A DNA stretch of 63,944 nt, filler included, from Collodictyon triciliatum (taxonomy: Eukaryota): the NCBI GenBank assembly GCA_043381765.1. It is 8 parts of 8 records of this genome, joined end to end, with 100 filler letters (N's around TTAATTAATTAA, not from the genome) between each part and the next. Parts side by side here need not be neighbours in the genome. Positions count along the whole stretch, not along the records: positions 16,934 to 25,233 come from JBHJMP010003457.1; 7 more parts are not named here. One strand, 5' to 3'. A program made the translations under genes and the position numbers. Each line of letters opens with the position of its first letter. Position 1 is the first letter of the stretch. Shown here piece by piece: positions 280 to 59,170 of this stretch. The notes beneath the pieces were generated by a model that worked only from the letters and a program-made list of their open reading frames with translations, searched no databases and had not been told where the DNA came from.

Positions 280-3200
280 TCAAAACTCTTCGACTGCTTT
301 TGGATGAGTAATATCATGCATTTCCACATCCTTGCGAAGTCTCATGCCCATTATTTTTCTGATAATAAAATTTGAAACCCAATTATAAACAATCAAGTCC
401 CAAATAGAGTTGAGGAAGGACAGAAATTGTGTTAGTAACAGTCTCAAAACAACAGGGCCGGCCTTTGAAAGGAAAACGATACATATTCCTCCATTTAGAA
501 TGACAACCAAAAGAACCAACACAACTTCGGTTTTTTGGTTAATACTGCTGTATTTGAAAAGTAGACTCAGCATCAAGGTGAAATAGAGAATCATGAGGGA
601 TTGCAACTGTGACTTTTTCAGCACGTTGGATATGAATGGCCTGAAATAAATAGTCGAAGCAATCATCAGAAACAGCAGCCACAAACCAAAGTATATTTGC
701 AGCGAAGCAGGAAAGAACGTGCTTATCATCACAATGACCAACTTTTGCATCATCAGGACGACCTCCCAGTATTGGCACTTTTCAGTATATCCATCAATCA
801 AAAATCGGAAAAGTGCGTATGTTTTCGAAGTTGGATTCGCCAGTGCTGTTCTTTTGCGAATGATTCTGACTAAAATTAAGAGCGGTCCGCAGATACAATA
901 GGCAAAAAGGAAAGCAAAAGAAACATTTCTCCAAAATTTGTAAGTTTCCTCATCACATAAAATCGACATATCAGCTTTCAAATATCTTATATCCCCGAGT
1001 TTTTCACATGGAAATATCTGTGAGATGCTCGATGTAATTGAAGGATGGACAAAAAACAGCATGACCAGCATCGAGTACATGATTTCTTCCCGATAATGAT
1101 TAAATGTAAAGCTACTCCTTGAAATCTCGTTTTTGTAAAGTCTCCTCAAATCTTTCATCAAAACAAAAACCAACATTATTAAAGTCAAAATTATTGGACT
1201 CAACATCGTGAACAATAATTTTTCATGCACTGACATTTCTATTTGGCATTCCATCGGGTAGCTGTCTATTGAAAGAGAAAATGAAAATAGGGCTGGTATT
1301 TTCAAAGCTGAAATTATGATTGAGCTCCATTTTACATCAAAGTTCGCCAAATATGACAAAACTTGGAAATGTGTGGAGAGTGATTTCAGAATTTGAATAT
1401 TTCCTGTCCTCGTCTGTCTTGATTGCTCTATCATGAAGAAAACGAAGGCAAGTGGAATAACAAAGCTCAGGAAAATCAAGAATATGTTCACTCCTTTTGG
1501 TGGGCATTTAGTGCAATAATAACCAGTTTTTCCGTATCCATTTTCACAAATACTACATAATGGACCAGTGTATCCATCAGCACAAGTTTTATTTCCTCCG
1601 TTACATGCATTTTCATTCAAACATTTGTAAGCGATATGTTCTCCATTTGAGGTTTGAGCTTGCCAATATCCTGGGGCAACTGTTGGTTGACTGGTTCCTT
1701 CACATTCAAATCCATCAGGACACGTTTTACAATATTTTAGTCCATAATCATCGCTATATGTATCTGAAGGACATTCGTAGCAGTTTCCTTGCTTTTCGTA
1801 CCATCCAGGTTTGCATTCAAAAGTAGAATTTCTTAACTCAAATCCTGTTTTACATTCGCAATCGGTTGAATTCATCGAACCATTGTTTTTTGTCGTACAT
1901 TTATCACCACAAGATAGGCAGAAATTTGTGCTGTTTGTTGATTTGTATGAACCAAGTCTGCATGGAACACAATTATTGCCATCCTCGAAGTTTCCTGGAG
2001 GACAGGTACAAATACCATCATATGGCACATAAGTGTCTAAGCATTTACAATCATCGATTGATTTGGAGCCTTCTTTCATCGTGGTTGAGCGCGTAGGACA
2101 TAGATTGCATGATGAGCTTCTATCTGAGCTGTAGCTTCCATTTGGACATGAAATGCATGATGATTTATCAAACGAGCCGGTTCGATTGTTGAATGTGCCA
2201 GCTGGACATGATGTGCAATCATCTCTGTAATAATTTCCAAAAGTGCCTGGTGGACAATCAATACATGAAAAGTTGCTTGTTGAACCAAACTTTGGATTAT
2301 AAGTACCATCTTTGCAATTGATGCACGAGTGTTGACCACTATGTGGATTGTATAAGCCAGGCTGACAAAGTTCACAAGTTGATTCACCTGATTTTGATGA
2401 AAATCTTCCTATAGGACATGGCTGACAGTTGCTTATACTGTTTGATGCAACATTTGGATTGTAGGAACCAGCCGGGCATTTTTCACAGCTGATTGATTTT
2501 GTTTTGTTGGAGTAAGTACCAGTGGGGCATGGATTGCAAAATTGCTTTCCCTTCTCATTCATGAAAAATCTAACAGGACAATCGAAGCAGCTTGACTTTC
2601 CATCGACGCTGTTGTATGTTCCTGGTTCGCATAAAAGACATGATGAATTTCCAGCACCTCTGATGCTTGGATTGAATGTTCCTGCAGGGCACGGAGCACA
2701 CAACTTATCTCCTTCATCGCTGTAAAATCCAGCAGTACAATTATTACATGCCACTTGCCCCTTTACATTATTAAACGTTCCGGCATCGCATTTTTTGCAA
2801 ATTGATTGACCCAAAAGATTATTGAATGTCCCTTCTCCACACAGAAGACAATCTCTAAGACTTGTTGAGCCAGTTGATGGATTATAAGTTCTAGTTGGAC
2901 ATAATAAACAAGAGGTGAGCTCATTTCCGTTATTATAAGAGCCATTTGGACATTTTTCGCATGAATTTGATTGCTGGTTGAAATACTATCCTCCTTGGCA
3001 TGGGTTCCATACTTTGATAAATCTATCAGTGCTTGCTGAGATTATTTTTGAATCAGTGGTAGCGAAAACATTATTGACTGAACCGGTGTGACTCAAAAGT
3101 GTTCGAATTTCTCTTCCATCTGACAGTGTCCATATTTTGACTGATTTATCACTGCTTCCAGAATACAGTTTTGTACCATCAGGTGATATTGAAATGCTAT

Positions 3201-5767
3201 TTACTGAACTTGAGTGTCCTGTTATTGTTCTAATTAAAGTGCCATCTGATATGTTCCAAATTTTGATTGTTTTATCGCTGCTTCCAGATATGATTCTTGT
3301 TCCATCTGGAGAGGTAATACCACATCTGACAGCATTTCCGTGACCGGTTATGGTTCTGAGTAATGTTCCATCTGATAAGCTCCATATTTTTATCGAAAAA
3401 TCAGCACTGCCAGATATTATTTTGATGTTATCAGGAGAGATAAATACAGAATTCACACTTTTAGAATGCCCAAAATTTGATCGAATTAAAGTTCCATCTA
3501 AAACTCTCCAAATATTCACATTCATATCATCGCCTCCTGATACTATAACAGAACTATCTGATGATACTGCAACGCTCCTGACAGCTTCAGTATGCCCATT
3601 AAATATTTTTAATAGCAAAGCATCAGAGAAATTCCACATTTTAATTGTCTGGTCGCTGCTTCCTGACACTATTTTTGTTCCATCAGCGGACACAACAACA
3701 CTATTCACAGCATTTGTATGGGCATTTATCGAAAGAGCTTGGGAACCATCTGCATAATTCCAGATTCTTATTGTGTTATCACTACTTCCTGACACAATTT
3801 TTGTTTTATCTGGGCTCAAAGAAACGCTATTCACTGAACTTGAGTGGCCTGAAACGGTCAGAATCAAGCTGAAATCAGGAAAGTTCCACAATTTAATAGT
3901 TGTGTCATCGCTTCCTGACAAAAATTTCGTGCCATCTGAAAAAATTGGTATTCCGTTAATTCCAAGAATGTGCTCGTTTATTATATTTATTGTGACTCCA
4001 TTAGAAGAATTCCATATTCTTACGCTATTATCACTGCTTCCAGAAACAATCTTTGAGCCATCAGTAGAAATTGAAACAGTTTTCACTATTCCGGTGTGCC
4101 CGTTGAGTGTGCGAATTAAGCTCCCATCTAAAATGCTTGTTATTTTGATTTTTTTATCGCTGCTTCCAGATACAATTTTTGTTCCGTCTGGCGTGATTGA
4201 CATATAATTGATAGAATGAGAGTGAACTTTTATATCTTGGACTAATGTTCCATCAATAATATTCCAAACTTTGATTGTTTTGTCCGCACTTCCAGATACA
4301 ATTTTTGAATTATCTGGAGTTAAAGCAACACTTGTTACAATTCCAGTGTGTCCACTTAATGTTCTAATTAAATTTCCATCAGATACATTTGTGATTCTTA
4401 TTGTTTTATCGCTACTTCCGGATACAACACTAGTTTCATCATTAGTCAAAGTAACGTAGATCACTGAATTAGTATGAATTTCAAATGATTGAATCAAAGA
4501 CCCATCTTCAACATTCCAGATTTTTATTGTTTTATCCGAACTTCCAGAGACAATTTTTTGGCCATCTGCTGTTAAAATCAGTGCGTTAACGACATCTGTA
4601 TGTCCAATCAACGATCTGATAAAATTGCCATTTGGCAGATTCCAAACCCTAATCATGTAGTCTGAATGCCCTGATATAGAAATTGATTTTGACTGAGAAA
4701 AGGCCATGCTTGTAACTCTGGAGCCTCTTGAGTAAATATGACTTCCATCATGAAAATTCCAAAGTCTTACCGTTCGGTCATGGCTCCCAGAAATAATTTT
4801 TGAACCATCAGGGGATACGAAAACACTCCAGACATGATGTAAATGACCAGTCAATGTGCAAATCAAACCTCCATTGGAAAGATTCCAGATTTTTATTGTA
4901 GTGTCCCAACTTCCAGAAACAATTTTTGAACTATCAGGAGTAAGAAAGGCACTCTAGACTCTCGATGAGTGGCCAGTCAGTGTGCGAATCAAAGTTCCAT
5001 CAGCAAGATTCCAGATTTTTATTGTGGTGTCCCAGCTACCTGAAATGATTTTAGAATCACCAAGAGTTACAATAACACTACGAACAAACCCAGTATGACC
5101 AATTAATGTGCGAATCAAAGTTCCATTAGAAAAATTCCAAATTTTGATTGTTAAATCATCACTTCCAGACACAATTTTCGAATCATCCGTAGAAGCAGCA
5201 ACAGTGTAAACCCAACCAGAATGGCCAGATAAAGTTTGAAGTAATAGACCATCAGACATTTTCCAGACTTTAATATATCTCAATAATCCAGTGACTATTT
5301 TTGATCCATCGGACATGAGAACGATGCTAGTAGCTCCACTTCCTAGCCCAACGATTGTGCGAATTAAAGATCCGTCAGAAAGATTCCAAATTTTGATTGT
5401 ACTATCATGGCTTCCGGAAACAATTTTTGAGCCATCAGGAGTAACAGCGACACGAGTAACAAACAAAGTATGACCAAGCAATGTACGAATCAAAGTTCCA
5501 TCAGAAACATTCCAAATTTTGATACTAAAATCCTGACTTCCCGAAACAATTTTTGAACCATCGGGAGTAACAGCAACACTGTTAACTGAATCAGTATGAC
5601 CCGTTCCAACAGTGTAAATCGAAGAAACTTGTGCAGAACTCGAAAAAAATGTATCCAAGGATGCTGATTGCTAATAAAATAGTATGTTTATGAAAAGAAA
5701 AGAGAATGATTAAGAATAAAAAGGGCTTACCCAGTATTGTTTGCTTAAGATGTAGACTCTTCCACAT
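280..5767 (-). CDS. Large receptor-like protein: putative signal peptide, 21 WD40 repeats, Cys-rich GCC2/GCC3 (ephrin-receptor-like) repeats and a multi-pass TM domain. Interrupted by two in-frame TAG codons (pseudogene or recoded)
   Basis: ORFs 4954-5658, 2986-4866 and 280-2814 share one frame. The gaps translate cleanly across TAG at 4954-4956 (GHSSRV*SAFLTPDSSKIVSGSWD) and 2986-2988 (CQGG*YFNQQSNSCEKCPNG). GH...VSGS.D.TIKIWN repeats, CxxCPxGTY repeats and hydrophobic helices follow in order. Short exon 1 (ATG 5767, GT donor 5730); TGA stop at 280-282. Confidence 0.85.
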
Positions 5768-8367: not shown

Positions 8368-8467
8368 NNNNNNNNNNNNNNNNNNNNNNNNNNNNNNNNN
8401 NNNNNNNNNNNTTAATTAATTAANNNNNNNNNNNNNNNNNNNNNNNNNNNNNNNNNNNNNNNNNNNN
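8368..8467. other. Artificial contig linker (N44-TTAATTAATTAA-N44)
   Basis: Identical 100-bp spacer containing a six-frame stop cassette; recurs seven times. Confidence 0.99.
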
Positions 8468-14274: not shown

Positions 14275-16582
14275 TATATAAACAGGAAAGAAAAATAAAA
14301 TAACTTACACATGACTTGATAGAGAGTTGCATCACTCCCGGATGTTTCTTGATGAGAGTTTACAGTTCTGCCCTGAGAATTTCCTTGTCCCTTGTATGGA
14401 CTTGATGTTTTCTGCCCATAAGCGGCGTTTGTCGATGCGGTCACAGGGGCTACGTTTTGATCAGCAGTGTCAACCTCTCGTCGATGATTTTCCCGCTCTC
14501 TCTGATGGGGCTGTTCATCCTTCCAGACATACCCCAGATCTTGGCGAGAGGAACGGGTAGATTTTGTCGGCTCTGTTTCATGCTTCTGAGCGGAGTATTC
14601 CCCTGATGGGACATTTGGTCTTTGGGCTGGTTTTTGAGTGGCTGCTTCGACAGCATAAGGTCCGTTGGCGGAGGCCGTGTTTCCCACAGCAGTATGTTTT
14701 TGCTGGTCATGCATAGCAGTTTTCTTTTGAGGTGACCAGTGTTGCGTTGTCTGTGAATGTGAATCAGCATGTTCATGCGCAGAAGCAGATGTCCCTTGCA
14801 CGTAGCCGATATTGGAGTTAGCCGGAGCACCGCTCTGACCGCCACTCCTTGAAGCAGACTTGTCTGCGTTTGTTGTGTAGAAGAATGAAAATATTTGAAC
14901 ATTTAAGGAGTTGAAGAAACGGGGTAAATGAAATAGAGAGAGAGAGAGAGCAAAGAGAAGTTAAGGGGGAAATATAATCTGAAATAGTTCATAGTATGTA
15001 TGAAAACAGGCTAGAAGTTACAAACACTAAGAGACGATGAACGAAGAACAAAGTGACAGGAGCCACAAACGTATGGAAGGACGACCCGAGAAGAGAGATT
15101 CTCACCTGGAGCGACGTCACCGCCGCGCTTATCACCCACGACGCCCGGCTCCTCATCCTCGTCGCTGTCAGCATCGCCATTGCCATTGCCATTGCCATTG
15201 CCATTGCCATCGCCATCGCCATCGCCATCGCCACGATCCGGGTCGTTCTGGAGATAGAGAGGCCCGCGGTCGATGCGGTAGAGCTGAGAGGGTCTGCGCC
15301 CGGCATCTGCGATGGACTTTTGGTCGTGGTCCGGGACGGGGAGAGGGGAAGGGACAGGCAGAGGGAGAGGGAGAGGGAGAGGGACGGGGTCCGGGGCGAG
15401 CCACGGGTGCGCGCGGATGTCGGCGAGGGAGATGCGGAGGCGGGGGTCCGGCTGGAGGATGAGGCGGACGAGGTCCCTGACGCGGTCGGAGCCGTTGCGC
15501 GGGGGGTGGCACCTGCCGGAGATGATGCGCTGGCAGAGGAGGTGGTGGTTGGGCTCGTCGAAGGGGAAGCAGCCGTTGAGGACGGCGTAGAGGATGACGC
15601 CCATGGACCAGACGTCGACGGCCGGGGTGTAGGGGTGCCCCAGCAGCATCTCGGGCGAGTTGTATGTCGGCGAGCCGCAGATGGTCTTGAGCAGGTCGGC
15701 CTCGCCGCCGCCGCCCTGGATGGAGTTGGACAGCCCAAAGTCGGTGATCTTGACGGCGTGGTGTGCGTCCAGCAGGATGTTTTCCAGCTTGAGGTCGCGG
15801 TGCACAATCTGGTGCCGGTGGCAGTGCTCCACGCCCTCCATGATCTGCCGGAACAGCACGCGCGCCTCCGCCTCGGGCAGGAACGCCCGCCGCGTCGTGT
15901 ACTCGAGCAGGTCGCCGTTCTGCGCGTACTCGAGCACCAGGTAGATCCGCTGCTGCTCCTCCACCACGTCCACCATCGACACGATGTGCGCGTGCCGCAG
16001 CCGCCGCAGCGCCTCGATCTCCCGCTTGATCCGCTCCATCCCGTTCTGCGCGTTCACCCGGCTCCGGTGGTAGATCTTGATCGCAACCTCCTCCTGCGTC
16101 TGCACGTGCGTGGCCAGCCGCACCTTCCCGAAGCCCCCTTCCCCGATCGTCCGTCCGAGCCGGTACTGCCCCACCACCCGCCCTTCCTCGTCCCCGGCCT
16201 GTGGTTGTGGTTGTGGTTGTGGCTGTGGCTGTGGTTGTGGTTGTGGCTGTGGCGGAGCCTGTGGCTGTGGTGGATGTGCCGCTGTGTAGCCGCGTCCGGC
16301 CCCGTAGCCGTATCCCGTGTACCCGCCGTATCCTGCGTAGCCCTGTGCGGCGGTGGTCTGGTACGGCGGGTGCGGCGCGTATCCGCCTTGTCGGGCAGGT
16401 TGCTGTGGTTGTGGCTGTGGCTGTGGCTGTGGTTGTGGCTGATGGTGCGGCTGTGTGGCCATGGCGGTGGTGTGTGGGCTGGTCGGCTGCGCTGTGGGTG
16501 GGGCTCCGCCCGGTGTGCCGCTGCCGGTATAGCGTGTCCCCACGGTGAAGGTGGTCCGGTTGCCCGCGTAGTTGGCGTACAT
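11633..16582 (-). CDS. Ser/Thr kinase of the CAMK group (AMPK/SNF1/MARK-like) with Gln/Pro-rich N-terminus, low-complexity linker and long C-terminal coiled coil; multi-exon
   Basis: Motifs GEGGFGKV, VAIK, HRDLKLEN, DFGLSN and LKTICGSPTYNSPE. Donor CAG|GTGAG at 15105 joins in phase 1 to the exon starting near 14863. Further exons match ORFs 14274-14801, 12669-13826 and 12192-12581, then ~12090-11908 and a last exon ending in TGA at 11633-11635. Confidence 0.85.
14170..14274. repeat. (TTTTG)n intronic microsatellite
   Basis: Visible tandem array. Confidence 0.9.
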
Positions 16583-16719
16583 GTCTGCGTTCAGTCGGTG
16601 TCGGGGTTTCCGTGGGGGTGTGTGCGGTTAGTTTGAAGGTGTGTGCACCTCTCCTTTGTTTTGTGTTTATCTATTTATTTATTTATTTATTGTTTCTTTG
16701 CTTCTTGTATTTTGTTTCT

Positions 16720-16833: not shown

Positions 16834-16933
16834 NNNNNNNNNNNNNNNNNNNNNNNNNNNNNNNNNNNNNNNNNNNNTTAATTAATTAANNNNNNNNNNN
16901 NNNNNNNNNNNNNNNNNNNNNNNNNNNNNNNNN
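16834..16933. other. Artificial contig linker
   Basis: N44-TTAATTAATTAA-N44. Confidence 0.99.
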
Positions 16934-17189
16934 TTTTTTCTTTTTTTCTTTTTTTCTTTTTTTCTTTTTTTCTTTTTTTCTTTTTTTCTTTTTTTCTTTT
17001 TTTCTTTTTTTCTTTTTTTTCTTTCCCTTCGGTCTCATTCAGTCTGTAAATGGATAAACTTCATAACAAAGGTTGTGACAAATTTGGTTTTATCCCTTTC
17101 AAGCACAACACTTTTTATACAACGAAAGTGTGCACATTTATAGCAGTTTATTGCACAAACAACCATCAAATTAAATCTGGATTGACAAA

Positions 17190-17200
17190 AGCAGGAGCTT

Positions 17201-17237
<37 letters not shown>

Positions 17238-17317
17238 TCTTCCTTTCAATTTTGTGCAGGATGGTGAAGATGTTGGCTTTGGTTCGCTAGCCATCGTTTG
17301 CTAGCAGGAGCTTTGAT
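17190..17317 (-). mobile_element. Short 5'-truncated retroposed insertion with poly(A) tail and 15-bp target-site duplication
   Basis: AGCAGGAGCTTTGAT at 17190-17204 and 17303-17317 flanks a T run (17204-17235) plus about 67 nt of unique sequence. On the minus strand it ends ...GAAGAATAAAAAA. Confidence 0.8.
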
Positions 17318-17827
17318 AAATCCAAGAGATAAGCTGAATAATACAATAGTATACTTAGTATATATAATAAGGTTAAAAATACTTAATAATCTCATTGTAT
17401 TCCTGTAATCAATTTATATTTTTACTTTATGTAATATTCGCATTAAAATTCAAAAATTACAGACAAGCCCTTACCTTGGCCCAGACAGAACCCACACCAT
17501 AAACTTGCCGTCAAACATGCATTTCCAAGAAGCATACTATCCACACTTGCGGCGGTAATCATGATGTTTGGGGCCGATATGTTGACTTTCAGTCGCAATG
17601 GCTATATGGCCGTCCTTTCGAACTCGCCGAATCGGCTCTCAGTGGTTTGTCTCAAATCACTTATAATAAACTTGGTGCGTTTGTTAGTTGCAATGCACAC
17701 ATTTTGTGAGTCTTGGTAGATGCTTAATTTTATGCAGTTTTTATTAAATTGACTTATTGAGTGAAGTTTTATTAAAATTGAAAACTCGGTGGTTTTCTAA
17801 AGGAAAAAGCAAAACAAAGACTTTCAA

Positions 17828-19660
17828 ATGAAGAAAAGAAAACGTCTTGAGTCTGAGAATCTAAAGTCGGTAAAATCAGGCTATCGAAACGTGAAAACAT
17901 CTCTAAAGTCGATTGTAAAGAATGCGGATGGCTATGACATAATCAGCGATACGGTTTTATTGCGTCATAATTTGGTTACCGACACTTCTCTGTTTGCAAG
18001 ATGCTACATATTGAAATCACAACAACTCCCAACAATCGATGAAATTGCATTTTGTATGCTTTAAAGACAGTCGGAAAAGTTTCACAAGATAGACCCGCAT
18101 TTTAAATAAAAAAAAACCAGAAATGAGAGATGACATGGTATCTTTTTATCTCAATCATTTTCGATTCCTTTTGTCCGGGAAGAACGCATTCCATTAGTTG
18201 GATTGTCTCATGTATTACCGGACTTGACGAAGTAAATGTTAACAGCTTATCATAATAATCATCAAGGAGTATTTTTTTTAAAAAGAGGTTACTGCGCTAC
18301 GTAAATCAAATAGTTCCTAAATATGAGAATATGACGGAAGCTATTAAAAAGGCAGAGTTACGAAACTTAAAAAAAAGCCATCTTCAAGAATCTCGAAATA
18401 CCAGAACAATATAAAGAGTGGGCTACAACGCATTTGAATCATATCATTCCCAGCGATATTGTAAAAGGTGTCGAATATGTCGCCAAAGTCAATCCAAATA
18501 AGTACATTCCATGTCTGATTTACATGAACCGCTTTTTTGAGGACATTGAAACCAAACTGTTTAACCAATCCCTTTAAGAACAAACAATATACCATGTCAT
18601 ATTACTCTAGATACTGCATCTTTGATAGATCTATTAGTATCATCTGGAAAAACATAATTACTGAAGAATATATCAGGATGCAAGGAGACCATATGGTATA
18701 AGTTCTTTGAAACGAAGAAGAGGGTTTTCATCAAAGAGACTACAATTTTATATACATGATACAAACAGACGGGTTGGCGGTGTCATTATTGTTTGAAAAG
18801 AAAGGTAATTCAAATTCAAATATAATCAAAAAAATCCCCCAAAAATGTTTATATAGATGAACTTACGAAGAGCAGTTATCTTTATTAGCGAAAAAAATAA
18901 AATAGTTGGAGTGGACGCAGGCACGTTTAGTTTGGTTTACATGGTGAATGAGGCAGGTAAGAAATCACGTTACACAGCACACCAAACAAGACATGATAGC
19001 AAATCTCTTTAAAATCACAAAATATTCTTGCGCGAGAAAAAAGTACAATGCTTCAGGGATATGTATGGCAACAGGTTTACAAAGTGCTATTTCTTTTGGT
19101 CATATGACTTTTGAAGTGAATCAGCGGTTTGAGATTAAGAATACCTTTAATCGATTTAGAGACAGAACTGAGTAAACATAATTCATGCACAGTCGATTAA
19201 GAAAAATTTCTAGAATATATATATGAAATCAAGATACCAGATAGAATTTTCCAGATTTTATGAACACGTAACTTCTCGAAAGATGAGATGTAGACAGTAT
19301 GCTAACACAAAAAGAAGTGAACAATTGTTTATGGACCGAATCGAAAAGGCATCTGTCAAGGATATTGTACTGGCGTATGGAGACTGGAGCAGAAAATGTC
19401 ATATGAACCATTTTATGCCAACAATTGGAAGAGGATTACGAGAAATACTATACGAACGTTTTGAAACAGTTTGTGTAAATGAATTTAGAACATCCAAGAT
19501 GTGCTGTAACTGAGAAAAAGAACTGGAATATATAATACTGAAAGGAAACTCAAAAAAAGTTGTATAGATGTCTCATATGAAAAGAATGCAATCGCTCAGA
19601 AAGCAAACAAACTATATTCTTGACAAGGAACTTTAGAAGCGCTAATAATGCGCTTAACAC
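17828..19660 (+). pseudogene. Degenerate Fanzor1 (eukaryotic TnpB-like RuvC nuclease)
   Basis: Ordered fragments across frameshifts and stops: N-terminal VKTSLKSI; RTNNIPCHITLDT; YMIQTDGLAVSLLF (~18753-18794); RuvC-I IVGVDAG (18902-18922); LAYGDWS...PTIGRGLR (~19370-19440); RuvC-II VNEFRTSKMCCN* (~19475-19513); RCLI*KEC zinc ribbon; RuvC-III LTRNFRSANN (~19620-19649, Asp replaced by Asn). Confidence 0.85.
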
Positions 19661-19704
19661 AGTTTTTTCAATCCTTCAAAAAACTCGTACACCTTGCTTT
19701 AAAA

Positions 19705-19827
19705 AATAGACTGTCGGGTCTTTCCTGGCAGCCTTCACCACTACACAAACTTTGTGAAAAAAGTGGGGAGATCTTGGATACTGGCGCACCAGGTTTACCA
19801 ATCGAAAGAATGGTTTACCCCTTCTAG
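19705..19827 (+). ncRNA. Putative Fanzor omegaRNA scaffold / element right end
   Basis: Four successive stem-loops directly after the Fanzor ORF: CTGTCGGG/CCTGGCAG (19711-19731); TCACCACT/AGTGGGGA enclosing CACAA/TTGTG (19735-19769); CTGG-CGCA-CCAG (19781-19792); GAAA-tetraloop hairpin (19792-19819). Ends in CTAG at 19824-19827. Confidence 0.6.
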
Positions 19828-20202
19828 TATAATTAATAAGTAGTCAACAATCACTCATGAACACTTCAGCTCCGTCGACCAAAATTATTCTGCAGCAAAG
19901 CGGCAGCTTAAGTCGAAAGTCATTCTTTATCAAAACCGAAGCAAAGAGTAAATCTTCTTTCAGAGGAACACCACGCGATCACCTGTTCGTACCAGCCGTA
20001 ATCAAACAGAGCAAGTGTATCACAAGAACAGCTCCGCTTCAACTAAAGAGGAAAAAAAGTCTGATTATTAAAGTAGAGAAAGAAAGAAAGAGAGAAAGAG
20101 AGAAAGAGAAAGAGAAAAGAGAGAGGATCAACGAAACCAAACCTTGGCAAGGGAGCGGCGAAGCGTTAACTCCTTCCACCTCAGAAACGCTTAGGAAGCA
20201 CA

Positions 20203-20481
20203 ATGACAGACGACCTGGCCTCCTCAATGCTGCCCCTGTGCCGCTTAATGATCGGAGACCTTTGCGACCAAAGCAACGATCCAACGCAGACGGTTCTGGT
20301 GGTTCTTTTGATCTTCTGCGTCGCCTACATATTCTTGCGAGTCGCCTTCGGACTAGTTCTTGTCGTGCTCTACAACACCTCCCTCATCATTGATAGGCTT
20401 CTTACGACCGTTGTCCCCATCTTGTGTATCTTCGGCCTGCTGGTTCTTTCCTACCTCAAAGTTGCAGACAACTTCTACTAA
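20203..20481 (+). CDS. Small hypothetical membrane protein (92 aa, 2-3 hydrophobic segments)
   Basis: Intact ATG-to-TAA ORF, GC-richer than its flanks, with hydrophobic stretches. Confidence 0.4.
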   Translation: MTDDLASSMLPLCRLMIGDLCDQSNDPTQTVLVVLLIFCVAYIFLRVAFGLVLVVLYNTSLIIDRLLTTVVPILCIFGLLVLSYLKVADNFY

Positions 20482-21934
20482 AGAGGCTTCCGTTTCCTTC
20501 TCTACATCTCACTCTTTTTCGTATCACCCAGATGATGTGGGTAAACCACATTGATTCACTTAGACCATAAAGACATGTTTCATGGATAGAGATGCCTCTT
20601 CGTGTTCATATAGCCATACCTTTTATCGATATAAATCTGGTATTTGTTTGGATGTATTCAAAGATATGGTTGACATGGCCCAAGGATAACTTTGACTCAT
20701 GAGAAATAGTTGCCGGTAAATTATGTGGTAAATTTATTTATTTTTTTATTGCGTTTCATTTCATTATGAATGCATATACTTACATTACCTTTGCATTACG
20801 GTCAATATTAAAACTAGAAGACATCCTTTACTTTCCATGAAAGTGTTGAAAAAAAAAACAAATCAGGACTGCTTTGATATGATTTACCTTATGAGGCTTT
20901 GTCACGCCAGCCTAAGGCTCTGTGATGCCCAACACTACTAAAGGAATAAAGAGCTGAGCAAGCAAGTCCTTAGATGCGCGCTATTTCAGGGAAATGAAAA
21001 TATCAGCTTTGGATTATTGTGCACTGGTTCATATCTTGCAAGACATATGCTAATTGCATATCATTCTAAGAAACAGATGACTCATGTTCTCCAGGATGCA
21101 AAGACCAATGAAAGCACGCAAATTACATGTGAGTATAGCTTCTAAATGTAAAATTACAAATCGTTGCTAATATATAATACATCAATCAAAAATGGGATAT
21201 TTAGGCGATATGAAGTGACAGGGAAGATTGAAGGAAATGTTTTGGGCAAAGTCGACAAGACTGTGGAGAAGTCCATGTTTATTGACTCAAAGTGATAAGT
21301 GAGGGAGCAGTGAAAATAGAAACCACGTGGCATCTGTTGGTCAAATCCATAAGTCAGAACCATGATGAATTTGAAGTTGTGAAGGTATAAGAGCGCATTG
21401 CAACAGGCCTTTTCCTCGACCACAGAAGATAAGGGAATGAATAAGCAACACTTGTATGGGGAATGATTGCGCTGGGACAATAAATAAAAAAAAAATCTGC
21501 GTATCAATCAGGCATGCAAAATTAGTGGTGGCACATTCTGGAGAACATCTTGAAAAAAAAATAATCTCGAGATGCATCAAAGGACTTATCACTCATGAAT
21601 TACAAGAGGCAATCTTTCACGTACTCCTCGCGGCGCCGTGAGATTGCTCATGTAAAGGAAGAGATGGGTGAGCATAGACTGCTGACAGAAGTAATCATCT
21701 TTTGGAGTGTTTCGCTGTATCACACCAGACCGCGCGGTCCAACTTGATTAACAAGAAGACTTGCTTTTGTGCATTATTGTGCGTTGAAAAGCCCGGAAGC
21801 GCAATGTTGTGTAAAGCTTTATTTATTTATTTTTTTTTTACTCTCGGCATGGTTAAGGTAACAAGTTTCGCGTGTCGATCACATGGTAGCATATTTGAAT
21901 GGTGGTTGCGAATTGGGCACTTTTTCTCTTTTTG

Positions 21935-22110
21935 GTTTTTTGTTTTTTTTTATTTTGTTTTTTTATTTTGTTTTTTTTATTTTGTTTTTTTTATTTTGTT
22001 TTTTTTATTTTGTTTTTTATTTTGTTTTTTTTATTTTGTTTTTTTATTTTGTTTTTTTATTTTGTTTTTTTTATTTTGTTTTTTTATTTTGTTTTTTTAT
22101 TTTGTTTTTT
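21935..22110. repeat. (TTTTTTATTTTG)n-like minisatellite
   Basis: Visible tandem array. Confidence 0.85.
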
Positions 22111-22193
22111 CAGCTTCTCGATAAGGCGGCATAAATTGGTCTCTCAGTGATCGGTTTGTGACTAACTGCACTATGATCCACTGCAGCTAGTAG

Positions 22194-24660
22194 ATGGAGA
22201 AGAGTGCAAAAGCCCAGCTGCGAGTGGCCTGTGGGAAAACGGTATACGTTGCCGATTTAGCTTTGGACTGTTCTGACGAGGTTCATGTTAACCCCAACAC
22301 TTTACTATCATCTTAACCCTAACTTTAACTGTGACTTTATTTTGAACCGTGGCTTTACTCAGATTTTATTTTTGTCTTAATTCCTTTTTATTTTTCATAG
22401 TATAGTATGTTGTATTATTTACTGTTGTAATATTCTTTGTCTCTCCTGTCTCTAGCCATTTATTTATCTTTTTTTTTTATTCGATTATCTTTGTTCACTC
22501 TCATTATTATTTAAAAGAAAGTCGAGAAACTTGTCGGCCTTCTTCCATGCAGCCAACAGACTTCCGCTCGCCACGTGTGGGAAAACTACAAGAAATATTC
22601 ATCGCATGTTTATAGTGGCTTTTTGGAATTGCCAGATGGTAGTGCATGGCATACAATGCTTTATATTATTTTAACTTAAATGAATGCAGTTTACTAAGAA
22701 ATGTAAATTAGTCCGCAGTGTGTAAGAGAACTGAAAAGGAATAATATAATCGCTGATTTTCTTTCTCGTAATCCATTTACCTTGTACGGGCTAATAACCA
22801 AAACAAAAATAAACAAAACCAGAAAACTACCAATCATCCAAAGCTATGGAAAGTGCATCACAATGGGCTGATTATTACCGTGCCCAAGACCTACTGTATT
22901 CCAATGAGGTCTACTTTTATTCGCGTACCAACCTTTTGATAAAATTATATTCCTTACTAATGCCATCAGAGGCAGTCTCTCAGAATTATTTACTAATTTT
23001 TACCTCATTAATCCCTAATAGCAAAAGCAAGATTACAATCCATCGCCAAATGAAAATATAGTTCCTTTTCATGACCAAGCAAACGCGAAGGAAAGGAAAA
23101 AGGTGGGTAATTAACCATTTTCTCGTTGTTAATCAGGAGAAATTAATTATGAATGCAAGAAAAATGAACGGGAATTCCTATATTAATCTCCACGTATGTA
23201 TCATCTTTGTGCGAAATCGCAGTTTACAAGTTTCGGATCTGCATACCACACGCTAATTCATGCGGGCCAGTGGGAGAGTGAGTCTATAGTCTCGCTGGAA
23301 TATTCCATGCATATGGAAATGCTTGATAGGTGGAATATATGTGAACAAGAAATGCATTCTCTTCAACTCAGGTTTTTAGGCTCATTTTTATCATACATAT
23401 ATGGCGGTACATTCCTTTGTCTTCCATACGCATTTTTCTTTTTCTTTTCCTTTTTCTTTTCTTTTCTTTTCCTTTCCTTTTTCTTTTTCTTTTTCTTTTT
23501 CTTTTTCTTTTTCTTTTTCTTTTTCTTTTTCTTTTTCTTTTTCTTTTTCTTTTTCTTTTTCTTTTTCTTTCCTTTTCTCTTTGCAAAAAGATGAAAATGA
23601 AATATCAAGCTCGGTTTAATAATTAAGTGTGTAGGCAGGAAAATGAAATGAAAGTTGAACTCCACAAAGCCAGCACTGAGAATGACCCTAACTCCGTTAT
23701 TTCTAAAGTAAAGTGTGCAATTTTTATAAAATAAAGCCTCTTTGGCTCGCATATGAATACATTATGTTTTCTCATTTCCTTGATATCAAATCAAAATAAA
23801 TCAACTTCAATATAACGAAAAGAAAACCAGCTGATGTCATTTTTATAGTGAATGTATTGTGACTTTTTTTTTTCATGCTTTGGATAGATTGTATCACGAC
23901 ATTTGCAAGAAGTAGAAACACAAGAAACTCAGAATAAGTCAAAGAATAACCGTTTGTCCAGGTCATGCAGTATTTTTATTTATTATAATTAGGATACCAA
24001 ATCAAAAGCTTCCCTGAAACATCAGTCCCGATTTGTATTTAATTATGAAAATGCAATATGACACAATATAATGGCCTTAACTCTTTCTTTTTTGAATTGT
24101 ACAGAAAACACCGAAAGGAATTTCGGGAATACATATTCAAGCTGTATCGCACTCATTTACAAAAGCAAAGGCTTGCTCAATCAGAGGGCTCTGACGATGG
24201 ACACTCGGCATCAGATACTGCAAGTAACCTTGGTGACTTCTCAGATCACCAGAAATCTACCTCTTCCATGTCAGCTTATGCGACCACCGCAATATCTATG
24301 GCTGCTGCGACAGTTACAGCAACAGTTACTGCACCTGTCGACCTAATTGGTGGATTATTCAGCATGGGATACAATCTCATTTCCAAAGGTACATTCCACT
24401 TTTCTTTTTAATCCTTCTTATAACGAGATGTTACTACTTCGGGAGGAAATATTGAAATGTTGATTTCAAGCCAATTTTCCTCAGATATATCAAGACTTTC
24501 GGTTCGCCTTAGCTTTTCATAAGTCCTTGTGACTTAATGGCCTATCAATAGGATCTACAGCTGATATCACTCCTATGCCAACAGTCCAAAAGCCCTTGAA
24601 TATCTCAAGTAATAAATATACTGCAGACCTCACAGGTCATCAAAGTAGCAAAGGGGTATT
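22194..24660 (+). CDS. Probable multi-exon hypothetical protein
   Basis: Exon-like blocks with GT-AG flanks: MEKSAKAQLRVACGKTVYVADLALDCSDE; AMESASQWADYYRAQDLLYSNE; HRKEFREYIFKLYRTHLQKQRLAQSEGSDD...; STADITPMPTVQKP. No homology recognised. Confidence 0.45.
23432..23575. repeat. (CTTTTT)n microsatellite
   Basis: Visible tandem array. Confidence 0.9.
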
Positions 24661-25233
24661 TGGACACAATTTAAAAAAAAACCTGTGTTATCGACATTAT
24701 GTGTTTGTTTAATCTTTTTGCTTTTCTTTTTTTTTTTTTTTTACTTTTGAGTTTGTTTGTTTGTTTGTTTTCTACTTTCTACTTTATATTTTATATTTTG
24801 TACTTAAAACTTTTTTTATTATTATCCGTCATATATCACCATCATCTTCAATATCAATATAAAAGCATCAACAAATATCAATACCTAGAACAATTTATCA
24901 AGACCATCTATGATTTACTCGACTGAGGGAGTTGGCAATCAGGAAATTTTACCGTACTCAGAATCCTTCTCTGTGTATTTAGGCCCCATGCAAGTGTGTA
25001 ATAGTTAGAATTGTTTTGAATTATAGAACTCTTTCTTTAATTTTTATATTCAAGGAAAATTATGAGTTACGATATAATGAAAGGTCTGCATAGCTTTATT
25101 TGTCTTTTTATTGTCTCTTTCTTGTATCTTTCTTGTATCTTTCTTGTCTCTTTCTTGTCTCTTTCTTGTATCTTTCTTGTATCTTTCTTGTATCTTTCTT
25201 GTATCTTTCTTGTATCTTTCTTGTATCTTTTTT

Positions 25234-25333
25234 NNNNNNNNNNNNNNNNNNNNNNNNNNNNNNNNNNNNNNNNNNNNTTAATTAATTAANNNNNNNNNNN
25301 NNNNNNNNNNNNNNNNNNNNNNNNNNNNNNNNN
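25234..25333. other. Artificial contig linker
   Basis: N44-TTAATTAATTAA-N44. Confidence 0.99.
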
Positions 25334-33696: not shown

Positions 33697-33796
33697 NNNN
33701 NNNNNNNNNNNNNNNNNNNNNNNNNNNNNNNNNNNNNNNNTTAATTAATTAANNNNNNNNNNNNNNNNNNNNNNNNNNNNNNNNNNNNNNNNNNNN
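33697..33796. other. Artificial contig linker
   Basis: N44-TTAATTAATTAA-N44. Confidence 0.99.
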
Positions 33797-42158: not shown

Positions 42159-42258
42159 NNNNNNNNNNNNNNNNNNNNNNNNNNNNNNNNNNNNNNNNNN
42201 NNTTAATTAATTAANNNNNNNNNNNNNNNNNNNNNNNNNNNNNNNNNNNNNNNNNNNN
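42159..42258. other. Artificial contig linker
   Basis: N44-TTAATTAATTAA-N44. Confidence 0.99.
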
Positions 42259-50614: not shown

Positions 50615-50714
50615 NNNNNNNNNNNNNNNNNNNNNNNNNNNNNNNNNNNNNNNNNNNNTTAATTAATTAANNNNNNNNNNNNNNNNNNNNNNNNNNNNNN
50701 NNNNNNNNNNNNNN
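50615..50714. other. Artificial contig linker
   Basis: N44-TTAATTAATTAA-N44. Confidence 0.99.
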
Positions 50715-59070: not shown

Positions 59071-59170
59071 NNNNNNNNNNNNNNNNNNNNNNNNNNNNNN
59101 NNNNNNNNNNNNNNTTAATTAATTAANNNNNNNNNNNNNNNNNNNNNNNNNNNNNNNNNNNNNNNNNNNN
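59071..59170. other. Artificial contig linker
   Basis: N44-TTAATTAATTAA-N44. Confidence 0.99.

Follow-up and report, generated by a model that had tools for sequence, protein, structure and literature searches.

A decayed, intronless Fanzor1 gene from a multi-copy repeat family in the genome assembly of Collodictyon triciliatum

We analyzed a 63,944-nucleotide stretch of DNA (hereafter the window) joined from eight records of the Collodictyon triciliatum genome assembly (GCA_043381765.1), in which a first-pass annotation had noticed the remnant of a gene for Fanzor1, an RNA-guided nuclease, at positions 17828 to 19660. Positions 17828-19761 very probably hold a neutrally decayed, intronless, full-length Fanzor1 copy that belongs to a multi-copy mobile family, with a lineage lying among elements of the Tc1/IS630 type. 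The start had been placed correctly, but not the end: the gene continues to 19761, 100 bases on, and the repeated unit around it to about 19849. Fanzor1 proteins are DNA endonucleases that depend on a guide RNA and a target-adjacent motif (TAM), and their omegaRNA is derived from the element's 3' end (Saito et al. 2023, PMC10432273; PMC10530073; both cited in part). The window contains 14 runs of N in seven pairs spaced about 8.4 kb apart, each pair consisting of 44 N, TTAATTAATTAA, and 44 N. These paired linkers show that the window strings together separate contigs, each about 8.3 kb long, and that features across a linker are not neighbors; the real context of the Fanzor1 copy is therefore limited to window positions 16934-25233 (JBHJMP010003457.1).

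The closest relative of the gene is an intact 648-amino-acid (aa) environmental protein from a 2.6-kb contig, referred to as P0001. It was the best match of a 99-aa open piece of the window copy (19214-19513) among 5.8 billion proteins (73% identity, E 1e-39), and 24 longer proteins among the 31 candidates reached E values of 0.01 or less. In the PDB, the same piece matched solely three Fanzor1 sequences (E 7.4e-4, 0.033, and 0.16). The 51-aa piece carrying GVDAG returned chance matches alone there (tectonin and ribosomal protein L6). A family profile was built from 15 intact full-length homologues, 43 to 48% identical to P0001, with 142 invariant columns that include Asp364 in GxDPGK, Glu555 in NEFRTSK, Cys562, Cys565, Cys584, Cys587, and Cys590, and Asp604 in TRDxNSA. 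Searched against 177,635 distinct PDB sequences, this profile had three matches at an E value of 1 or less, all of them Fanzor1: SpuFz1 of Spizellomyces (1.7e-53, profile positions 3-608), PpFz1 of Parasitella (4.8e-51), and GtFz1 of Guillardia (2.8e-38). No TnpB, Cas12, or Fanzor2 chain was matched at that threshold.

Motif and fold comparisons point in the same direction. All 15 relatives satisfy the Fanzor1 signature of Yoon et al., DPG-x(120,280)-E-x6-[CH]-xx-C-x(10,65)-C-x(5,50)-RD-x5-N (bioRxiv 10.1101/2023.08.09.552727, cited in part). With the AlphaFold model of P0001 as the Foldseek query, all seven matches at an E value of 0.001 or less were Fanzor1 chains (2.5e-15 to 2.3e-13), and next came Cas12h (5e-3), Cas12f, TnpB (0.041), and the mimivirus Fanzor2 (0.18). 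SpuFz1, PpFz1, and GtFz1 are thereby the best and sole strong fold matches of the model, at just 18 to 20% identity. Pfam assigned the Cas12f1-like_TNB zinc-ribbon family weakly to all 15 intact relatives (best E 1.3e-4); PF26935.1, which labels the relatives in the protein database, was not returned by the Pfam search of them. Profile and fold matches support the predicted assignment of the window copy to the Fanzor1 type, over TnpB, Fanzor2, and Cas12. The type named by the first-pass annotation thus stood, and the profile check it had proposed, for likeness to Fanzor1 or TnpB, came out on the side of Fanzor1.

A frameshift-aware codon alignment between P0001 and the window DNA covered 642 codons, 396 of which are identical (61.7%), and tblastn recovered the copy in segments with E values of 7e-54 and 1e-92. 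Just five extra codons and six missing residues separate the copy from P0001, with no intron-sized gap, which makes the gene intronless. The frame has 24 breaks, 17 of them frameshifts and 7 in-frame stops (four TAA, one TAG, and two TGA), and an intronless gene with many such breaks is what had been described at first. The blocks named then are also all present in order on the plus strand, as TDGLAVS, GVDAG, YGDWS..PT, NEFRTSKMC, a Cys-rich stretch, and TRNFRSANN (Table 1).

The damage extends to the active site. The zinc ribbon is still recognizable as a domain but is broken, as C565 and C587 are both TGA stops; in the RuvC-II pattern E-x6-[CH]-xx-C, the Glu is present and the final Cys is a stop. 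RuvC-III reads RN in the window copy and RD in all 15 relatives, and this change from Asp to Asn is a private loss of a dead copy and no argument against Fanzor1 descent. Among the 142 invariant family residues, 29 are lost and 113 kept, and at the remaining alignment positions the copy equals P0001 at 283 of 506. Because of the 17 frameshifts, the 7 stops, the two lost zinc ligands, the Asp-to-Asn change in RuvC-III, and the 29 lost invariant residues, the copy is, by its sequence, dead and could not act as a nuclease; that it is dead had been stated at first. This pattern of losses, together with a long tip branch (see below), would fit long neutral decay after inactivation.

Other copies of the gene were found in sequencing runs. 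We compared three runs with positions 17000-20400 at 80% identity or more, namely, X1, a freshwater metagenome; X2; and X3, an organism run ("organism A") made up of contigs whose origin from RNA or DNA is a guess. The figures of the comparison count contig pieces and are no measure of copy number. Sampled words of the stretch occurred in three runs at 0.05 to 0.09 each, none reaching half. X3 yielded 486 pieces, 30 of them at 99% identity or more, 100 at 95 to 99%, 195 at 90 to 95%, and 161 below 90%; X1 yielded 169 pieces and X2 yielded 2. Each bin from 17000 through 19736-19849 was covered, cover was zero at 19850-20191 in X1 and X3, and beyond 20192 there was a trace depth of 2 to 3 in X3 only. 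The abrupt fall from cover to zero indicates that the unit is repeated and that its right end lies inside 19736-19849. The repeated unit is about 2.9 kb long, from about 17000 to 19849, with a left end at or beyond 17000. The part upstream of the gene (17000-17827) shows variant joints at 17174>17304, 17641>17791, and 17663>17737, and no family, transposase, or inverted repeat was found in it; it may belong to the element as its 5' part or be a repeat that abuts it.

Three defects of the window copy are absent from the X3 contigs that cover them. The stop at 18233 is a Gln codon in 14 contigs, the stop at 19578-19580 is a Cys codon in 19 (the differing letter being 19580), and the Asn codon at 19629-19631 is an Asp codon in 8 (the differing letter being 19629), in each case the entire depth at the site. 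Some other copies also have indels at 18145, 18725, 18862, 19038, and 19552, beside five of the frameshift sites. These observations support the conclusion that the Fanzor1 copy belongs to a multi-copy repeat family in which other copies are less damaged. The earlier suggestion of a Fanzor family in this lineage, past or present, is thus strengthened by hundreds of diverged contig pieces in the organism run and the freshwater metagenome; the window itself contains no second copy of Fanzor1. We also observed that one X3 contig skips 143 bases (18465>18609) and one skips 203 bases (18954>19158), both with GT..AG ends, which could be deletions in other copies or transcript splicing.

Relatives of P0001 are numerous in environmental data. 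A search with P0001 gave 243 matches at an E value of 1e-10 or less from 7,037 candidates, all environmental proteins and none more than 46% identical, and a scan for the contig that encodes P0001 confirmed none of 184 candidate stretches. In IMG/VR, 134 of 197 pattern-match loci were confirmed, many on GVMAG-named contigs of up to 720 kb, with the best 44 to 47% identical; JGI metagenomes contributed at least 482 further confirmed loci, the best 47% identical among the matches listed. One 316-kb giant-virus record contains two Fanzor1 genes about 10 kb apart (G002:C1:281775-283883 and 294422-296386), one of which lies within a 730-aa frame and was matched in two stretches. Removal of near-duplicates reduced 123 loci to 25, which were placed in a tree of 27 rows with P0001 and a read-through of the window copy (X at breaks). 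The window copy and P0001 pair with 100% support in the Shimodaira-Hasegawa-like approximate likelihood ratio test (SH-aLRT), with tip branches of 0.50 for the window and 0.22 for P0001. In the midpoint-rooted tree, the pair nests among Fanzor1 genes that are mostly on giant-virus contigs.

The relatives share a defined element anatomy. Their right end, CGGCGTTTTAAATGnnCAAAGGTGTAAA, lies 0 to 160 nucleotides (nt) past the stop codon and is followed by unrelated DNA (for example, L001:7818-7952); among the 141 loci with enough flank, 100 have it by a strict pattern. RNAalifold on 15 loci predicted 13 pairs, 4 of them with compensatory changes; the pairs include a long-range stem closing at the terminal AAAGG. 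The covariance model R1, trained on these 15 loci, had 79 matches at an E value of 0.001 or less in 78 of 100 other loci, almost all on the gene strand at the 3' end; the three best matches nearly duplicate training loci, and the others score 35 to 79 bits. In 29 of 63 loci, a copy of the right end in inverted orientation lies 1.7 to 5.9 kb upstream and marks the left end. Upstream, 79 of 160 loci also carry a DDE_3 transposase of the IS630/Tc1 type (E 2.8e-15), in most cases on the other strand, and Fanzor-only units of 2.3 to 2.4 kb also occur. The termini, TTTA|CACC...GGTG|TAAA, would fit a TA duplication. As judged from this anatomy, the relatives are Tc1/IS630-type Fanzor1 elements. An open reading frame (ORF) of 100 to 140 aa (...KKYTAP..K.YYENHKEE...KKEYARRAYLNKKEKL...) was also seen in 34 of 136 loci (L123:149-523, L156:1711-2085, L159:153-533, and 31 others). 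It belongs to no Pfam family, ends in TTTAG immediately ahead of the conserved leader, about 70 nt long, that lies upstream of the Fanzor gene, and could either belong to the element or be a site where it lands preferentially.

It is plausible that the window copy descends from a Fanzor1 gene of a Tc1/IS630 (mariner)-type transposon lineage that is carried mostly on giant-virus contigs. By homology to SpuFz1, GtFz1, and PpFz1, the intact protein of that ancestor would bind an omegaRNA transcribed at the 3' end of the element that carries its gene and would cut guide-matching DNA with a RuvC site (Asp, Glu, and Asp) braced by the zinc ribbon. The window copy, one member of a multi-copy family in the organism, has lost its frame, two zinc ligands, and the third catalytic residue and could not act in this way.

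A number of results weigh against this account. With filters off, the covariance model of the relatives' right end matched nothing in the 3' region of the window gene (its best match anywhere in the window had an E value of 0.6, on another contig), whereas it recovers loci with proteins just 27 to 30% identical to P0001. No match in the window was obtained by nhmmer with two right-end DNA profiles or by Rfam for an omegaRNA, and the 3' tail of the window copy folds no better than shuffled sequences (z-score, -0.26). Positions 19744-19795 resemble by eye the coding tail of the relatives (AAAGT..GG..ATC..TTGAT), a resemblance that passed no test. With no right-end or omegaRNA match and an unremarkable fold, RNA guidance for the window lineage is predicted from protein homology only. 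Nor were element ends, an inverted repeat, or a target-site duplication found on the 8.3-kb contig; no transposase relic was found there either (the best in the window had an E value of 0.82, on another contig), and no second copy of the terminal 16-mer was found. The AlphaFold model of P0001 is weak (predicted local distance difference test [pLDDT], 57.2; predicted template modeling score [pTM], 0.53). Pfam matched none of 11 reading-frame pieces of the window copy above threshold and 9 not at all; OrfB_IS605 on 1 of the 11 (E 0.1) scored 13.2 bits against a cutoff of 30.5, and a match to the RNA recognition motif (RRM) on one piece (E 0.053) was dismissed as irrelevant. The tree is rooted at its midpoint without the named Fanzor1a-d references, and the contig is visible to only 8.3 kb. 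Finally, an X2 contig equals 19501-19651 with 0 differences, including both TGA stops and one frameshift, and X2 may be the source sample and hence not independent.

The missing right end can be read in two ways, as a different transposon with a different scaffold or as decay past recognition. A different transposon may be the likelier, because all copies stop sharply before 19850. It is possible, although on balance doubtful, that the window copy and P0001 form a distinct Fanzor1 subfamily that left the giant-virus Tc1/IS630 elements, swapped its right end and omegaRNA scaffold, and was amplified to many copies in a poorly sampled freshwater eukaryote.

Other origins for the gene have to be weighed against a decayed copy of a mobile family. 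It could be the visible remnant of an integrated giant-virus fragment, that is, an endogenous viral element without transposition within the host. The nearest clade with long contigs consists of giant-virus metagenome-assembled genomes, the window copy and P0001 nest among giant-virus genes, and sharing of Fanzor1 between integrated giant viruses and their host has been published (bioRxiv 10.1101/2024.09.03.611062, cited in part). We nevertheless regard this origin as quite improbable: tblastx of the 8.3-kb contig against 80 viral loci with flanks of up to 6 kb on each side found similarity confined to 17733-19733, the contig has no Pfam-recognizable gene over the 8.3 kb seen, the repeated unit of about 2.9 kb with its sharp end before 19850 is transposon-sized, and the conserved right end of the relatives is missing. 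Alternatively, the contig could derive from a virus, or from some other organism, in a mixed sample instead of from the nuclear DNA of the eukaryote, since the window concatenates contigs with G+C contents from 0.34 to 0.44 and parts of the stretch are present in freshwater metagenomes. In contrast to the viral loci, where genes are dense, the contig has few genes and abounds in microsatellites and poly-T tracts, and its G+C content of 0.35 agrees with that of five of the seven other contigs; neither point is decisive, but a foreign source seems unlikely.

That the gene is functional, with breaks that come from errors of sequencing, from a variant genetic code, or from very short introns, is very improbable. 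Five of the frameshifts lie in or beside runs of 5 to 8 A or T, a 5.4-kb frame with two in-frame TAG codons on another window contig (see below) would be in line with a variant code, and the two GT..AG skips, in one X3 contig each, would be in line with introns. However, at least six frameshifts lie away from homopolymers, and the TAA, TAG, and TGA stops replace P0001 residues Q, Y, R, Y, C, C, and Q, a mixture of stop types and residues such that no single codon reassignment clears all of them. The replaced invariant residues include a catalytic Asp, and the exact X2 contig, possibly from the same sample, repeats both TGA stops and a frameshift. It is scarcely credible, too, that the gene is what remains of a Fanzor2 or of a TnpB from prokaryotes (IS200/IS605 or IS607). 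The weak OrfB_IS605 match and the weak Cas12f1-like_TNB matches of the relatives point that way, whereas the family profile matched no such chain at an E value of 1 or less, the fold matches to TnpB and the mimivirus Fanzor2 (0.041 and 0.18) compare with 1e-13 to 1e-15 for Fanzor1, the protein is 648 aa long, and the partner of the relatives is a DDE_3 transposase and not TnpA. A neutrally decayed Fanzor1 copy of a multi-copy mobile family remains our preferred interpretation.

Table 1. Coordinates of the Fanzor1 copy, its motif blocks, the repeated unit, and the linkers in the window
Feature	Position	Strand	Remarks
Fanzor1 pseudogene	17828-19761	+	Colinear with P0001 residues 1-648; ATG at 17828
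In-frame stops	18233, 18655, 19010, 19198, 19511, 19578, 19707	+	At P0001 residues Q, Y, R, Y, C, C, Q
TDGLAVS block	18765-18785	+	Upstream of RuvC-I; T312, D313, G314, S318 invariant in the relatives' alignment
RuvC-I GVDAG	18908-18922	+	Catalytic Asp kept at 18914-18916; DAG for the family DPG (P365A)
YGDWS...PT block	19376-19423	+	Aligns with the equivalent block of PpFz1, GtFz1, and SpuFz1
NEFRTSKMC	19478-19504	+	RuvC-II Glu kept, at 19481-19483
First zinc-ribbon Cys pair (NEFRTSKMCCN*)	19478-19513	+	Cys at 19502; second position is TGA at 19511-19513
Second zinc-ribbon Cys cluster	19569-19589	+	Cys at 19569-19571, TGA at 19578-19580, Cys at 19587-19589
RuvC-III TRNFRSANNA	19623-19652	+	Asn codon AAC at 19629-19631 for the invariant Asp (D604N)
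3' tail of repeated unit	19762-19849	+	Expected site of the omegaRNA scaffold; none detected
Upstream repeated DNA	17000-17827	.	Depth in each bin from 17000
Linkers	8368-8467, 16834-16933, 25234-25333, 33697-33796, 42159-42258, 50615-50714, 59071-59170		44 N + TTAATTAATTAA + 44 N

The contig carrying the Fanzor1 copy begins 894 bases upstream of its ATG. Elsewhere in the window, contigs carry genes for a protein kinase, a WD40 array, and ephrin-receptor-like repeats, which argues for a eukaryotic host; that this host is a protist, as named at first, is plausible. The kinase gene (15011-16627, minus strand) is on a different contig and so is not a neighbor of the Fanzor1 copy. Its G+C content is 0.52, that of its contig is 0.44, and most other contigs are at 0.34 to 0.40; it has long PQ, GN, and GD repeats, and its best relatives are 45% identical, with none higher. 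On the minus strand at 280-5670, a 5.4-kb reading frame ends in TGA and is broken solely by TAG at 4954-4956 and 2986-2988. The predicted product has a long WD40 array and, after it, Cys repeats of the ephrin-receptor-like kind, and the two TAG codons may mean that TAG is read as sense there or that the frame consists of two or three adjacent genes.

Published Fanzor1 elements provide several points of comparison. PGv-1, PUl-1, and the Fanzor-only PUl-4 are Mariner/Tc1-type Fanzor1 elements of giant viruses and protists with TA duplications, and degenerate coding sequences as well as Fanzor-only and chimeric Fanzor elements have been described (Bao & Jurka 2013, PMC3627910, cited in part). Likened by published description, the intact relatives share this build, with Fanzor1 and DDE_3, Fanzor-only units, and inverted ends; in contrast to PGv-1 and PUl-1, the window copy is without a detected transposase, inverted repeat, TA duplication, or right end of the relatives. 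Within Cyanidioschyzon merolae, a red alga, CMe-1A comprises about 150 copies that are about 80% identical to their consensus and whose ends are undetermined (PMC3627910, cited in part). By that description, CMe-1A too is an old Fanzor1 family with many diverged copies in a unicellular eukaryote, and its ends are elusive. A giant virus integrated in Chlamydomonas reinhardtii carries Fanzor1 with an IS630-Tc1-mariner transposase, variants consist of a Fanzor gene and a right-end guide, and the host chromosome holds degraded Fanzor1 copies and one fragment (bioRxiv 10.1101/2024.09.03.611062, as excerpted). Common to both is that host DNA contains a dead copy of a Fanzor1 of the virus type. However, according to the same excerpts, the C. 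reinhardtii virus copies are more than 99% identical within a family, whereas the window family is old, with many pieces 80 to 99% identical, and the window copy is without viral flanking genes on its 8.3-kb contig.

Among characterized nucleases, SpuFz1, PpFz1, and GtFz1 (PDB 8GKH, 9CEU-9CEZ, 9CF0-9CF3, and 9CER-9CET) have the DPG, GDWS, E..TS..C, zinc-ribbon, and RD blocks in common with the window family. These proteins are intact, with DNA cutting shown and omegaRNAs known, whereas the window copy is dead and no omegaRNA is recognizable for it. Xu et al. 2024 is reportedly among the sources for the solved Fanzor1 nucleases. Prokaryotic TnpB of IS200/IS605 and IS607 has the RuvC and zinc-ribbon core and the expected RNA-guided mode in common with the family but is smaller than the 648-aa Fanzor1 family protein, and the partner of the relatives is a DDE transposase and not TnpA.

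A single dead copy matters little, as degraded Fanzor1 copies in host genomes have already been published (PMC3627910; bioRxiv 10.1101/2024.09.03.611062; both cited in part). Across proteins merely 27 to 47% identical to P0001, the relatives retain inverted ends, an IS630-type partner, and a near-invariant, structured right end about 30 nt long, and this right-end result may help those mining giant-virus Fanzor1 systems. The finding also points to the intact 648-aa relative P0001 and flags a large and old Fanzor1 family, with less damaged copies, in this eukaryote. If the window copy and P0001 do form a distinct subfamily, naturally intact copies would amount to a programmable nuclease that is new and whose guide RNA is yet to be described.

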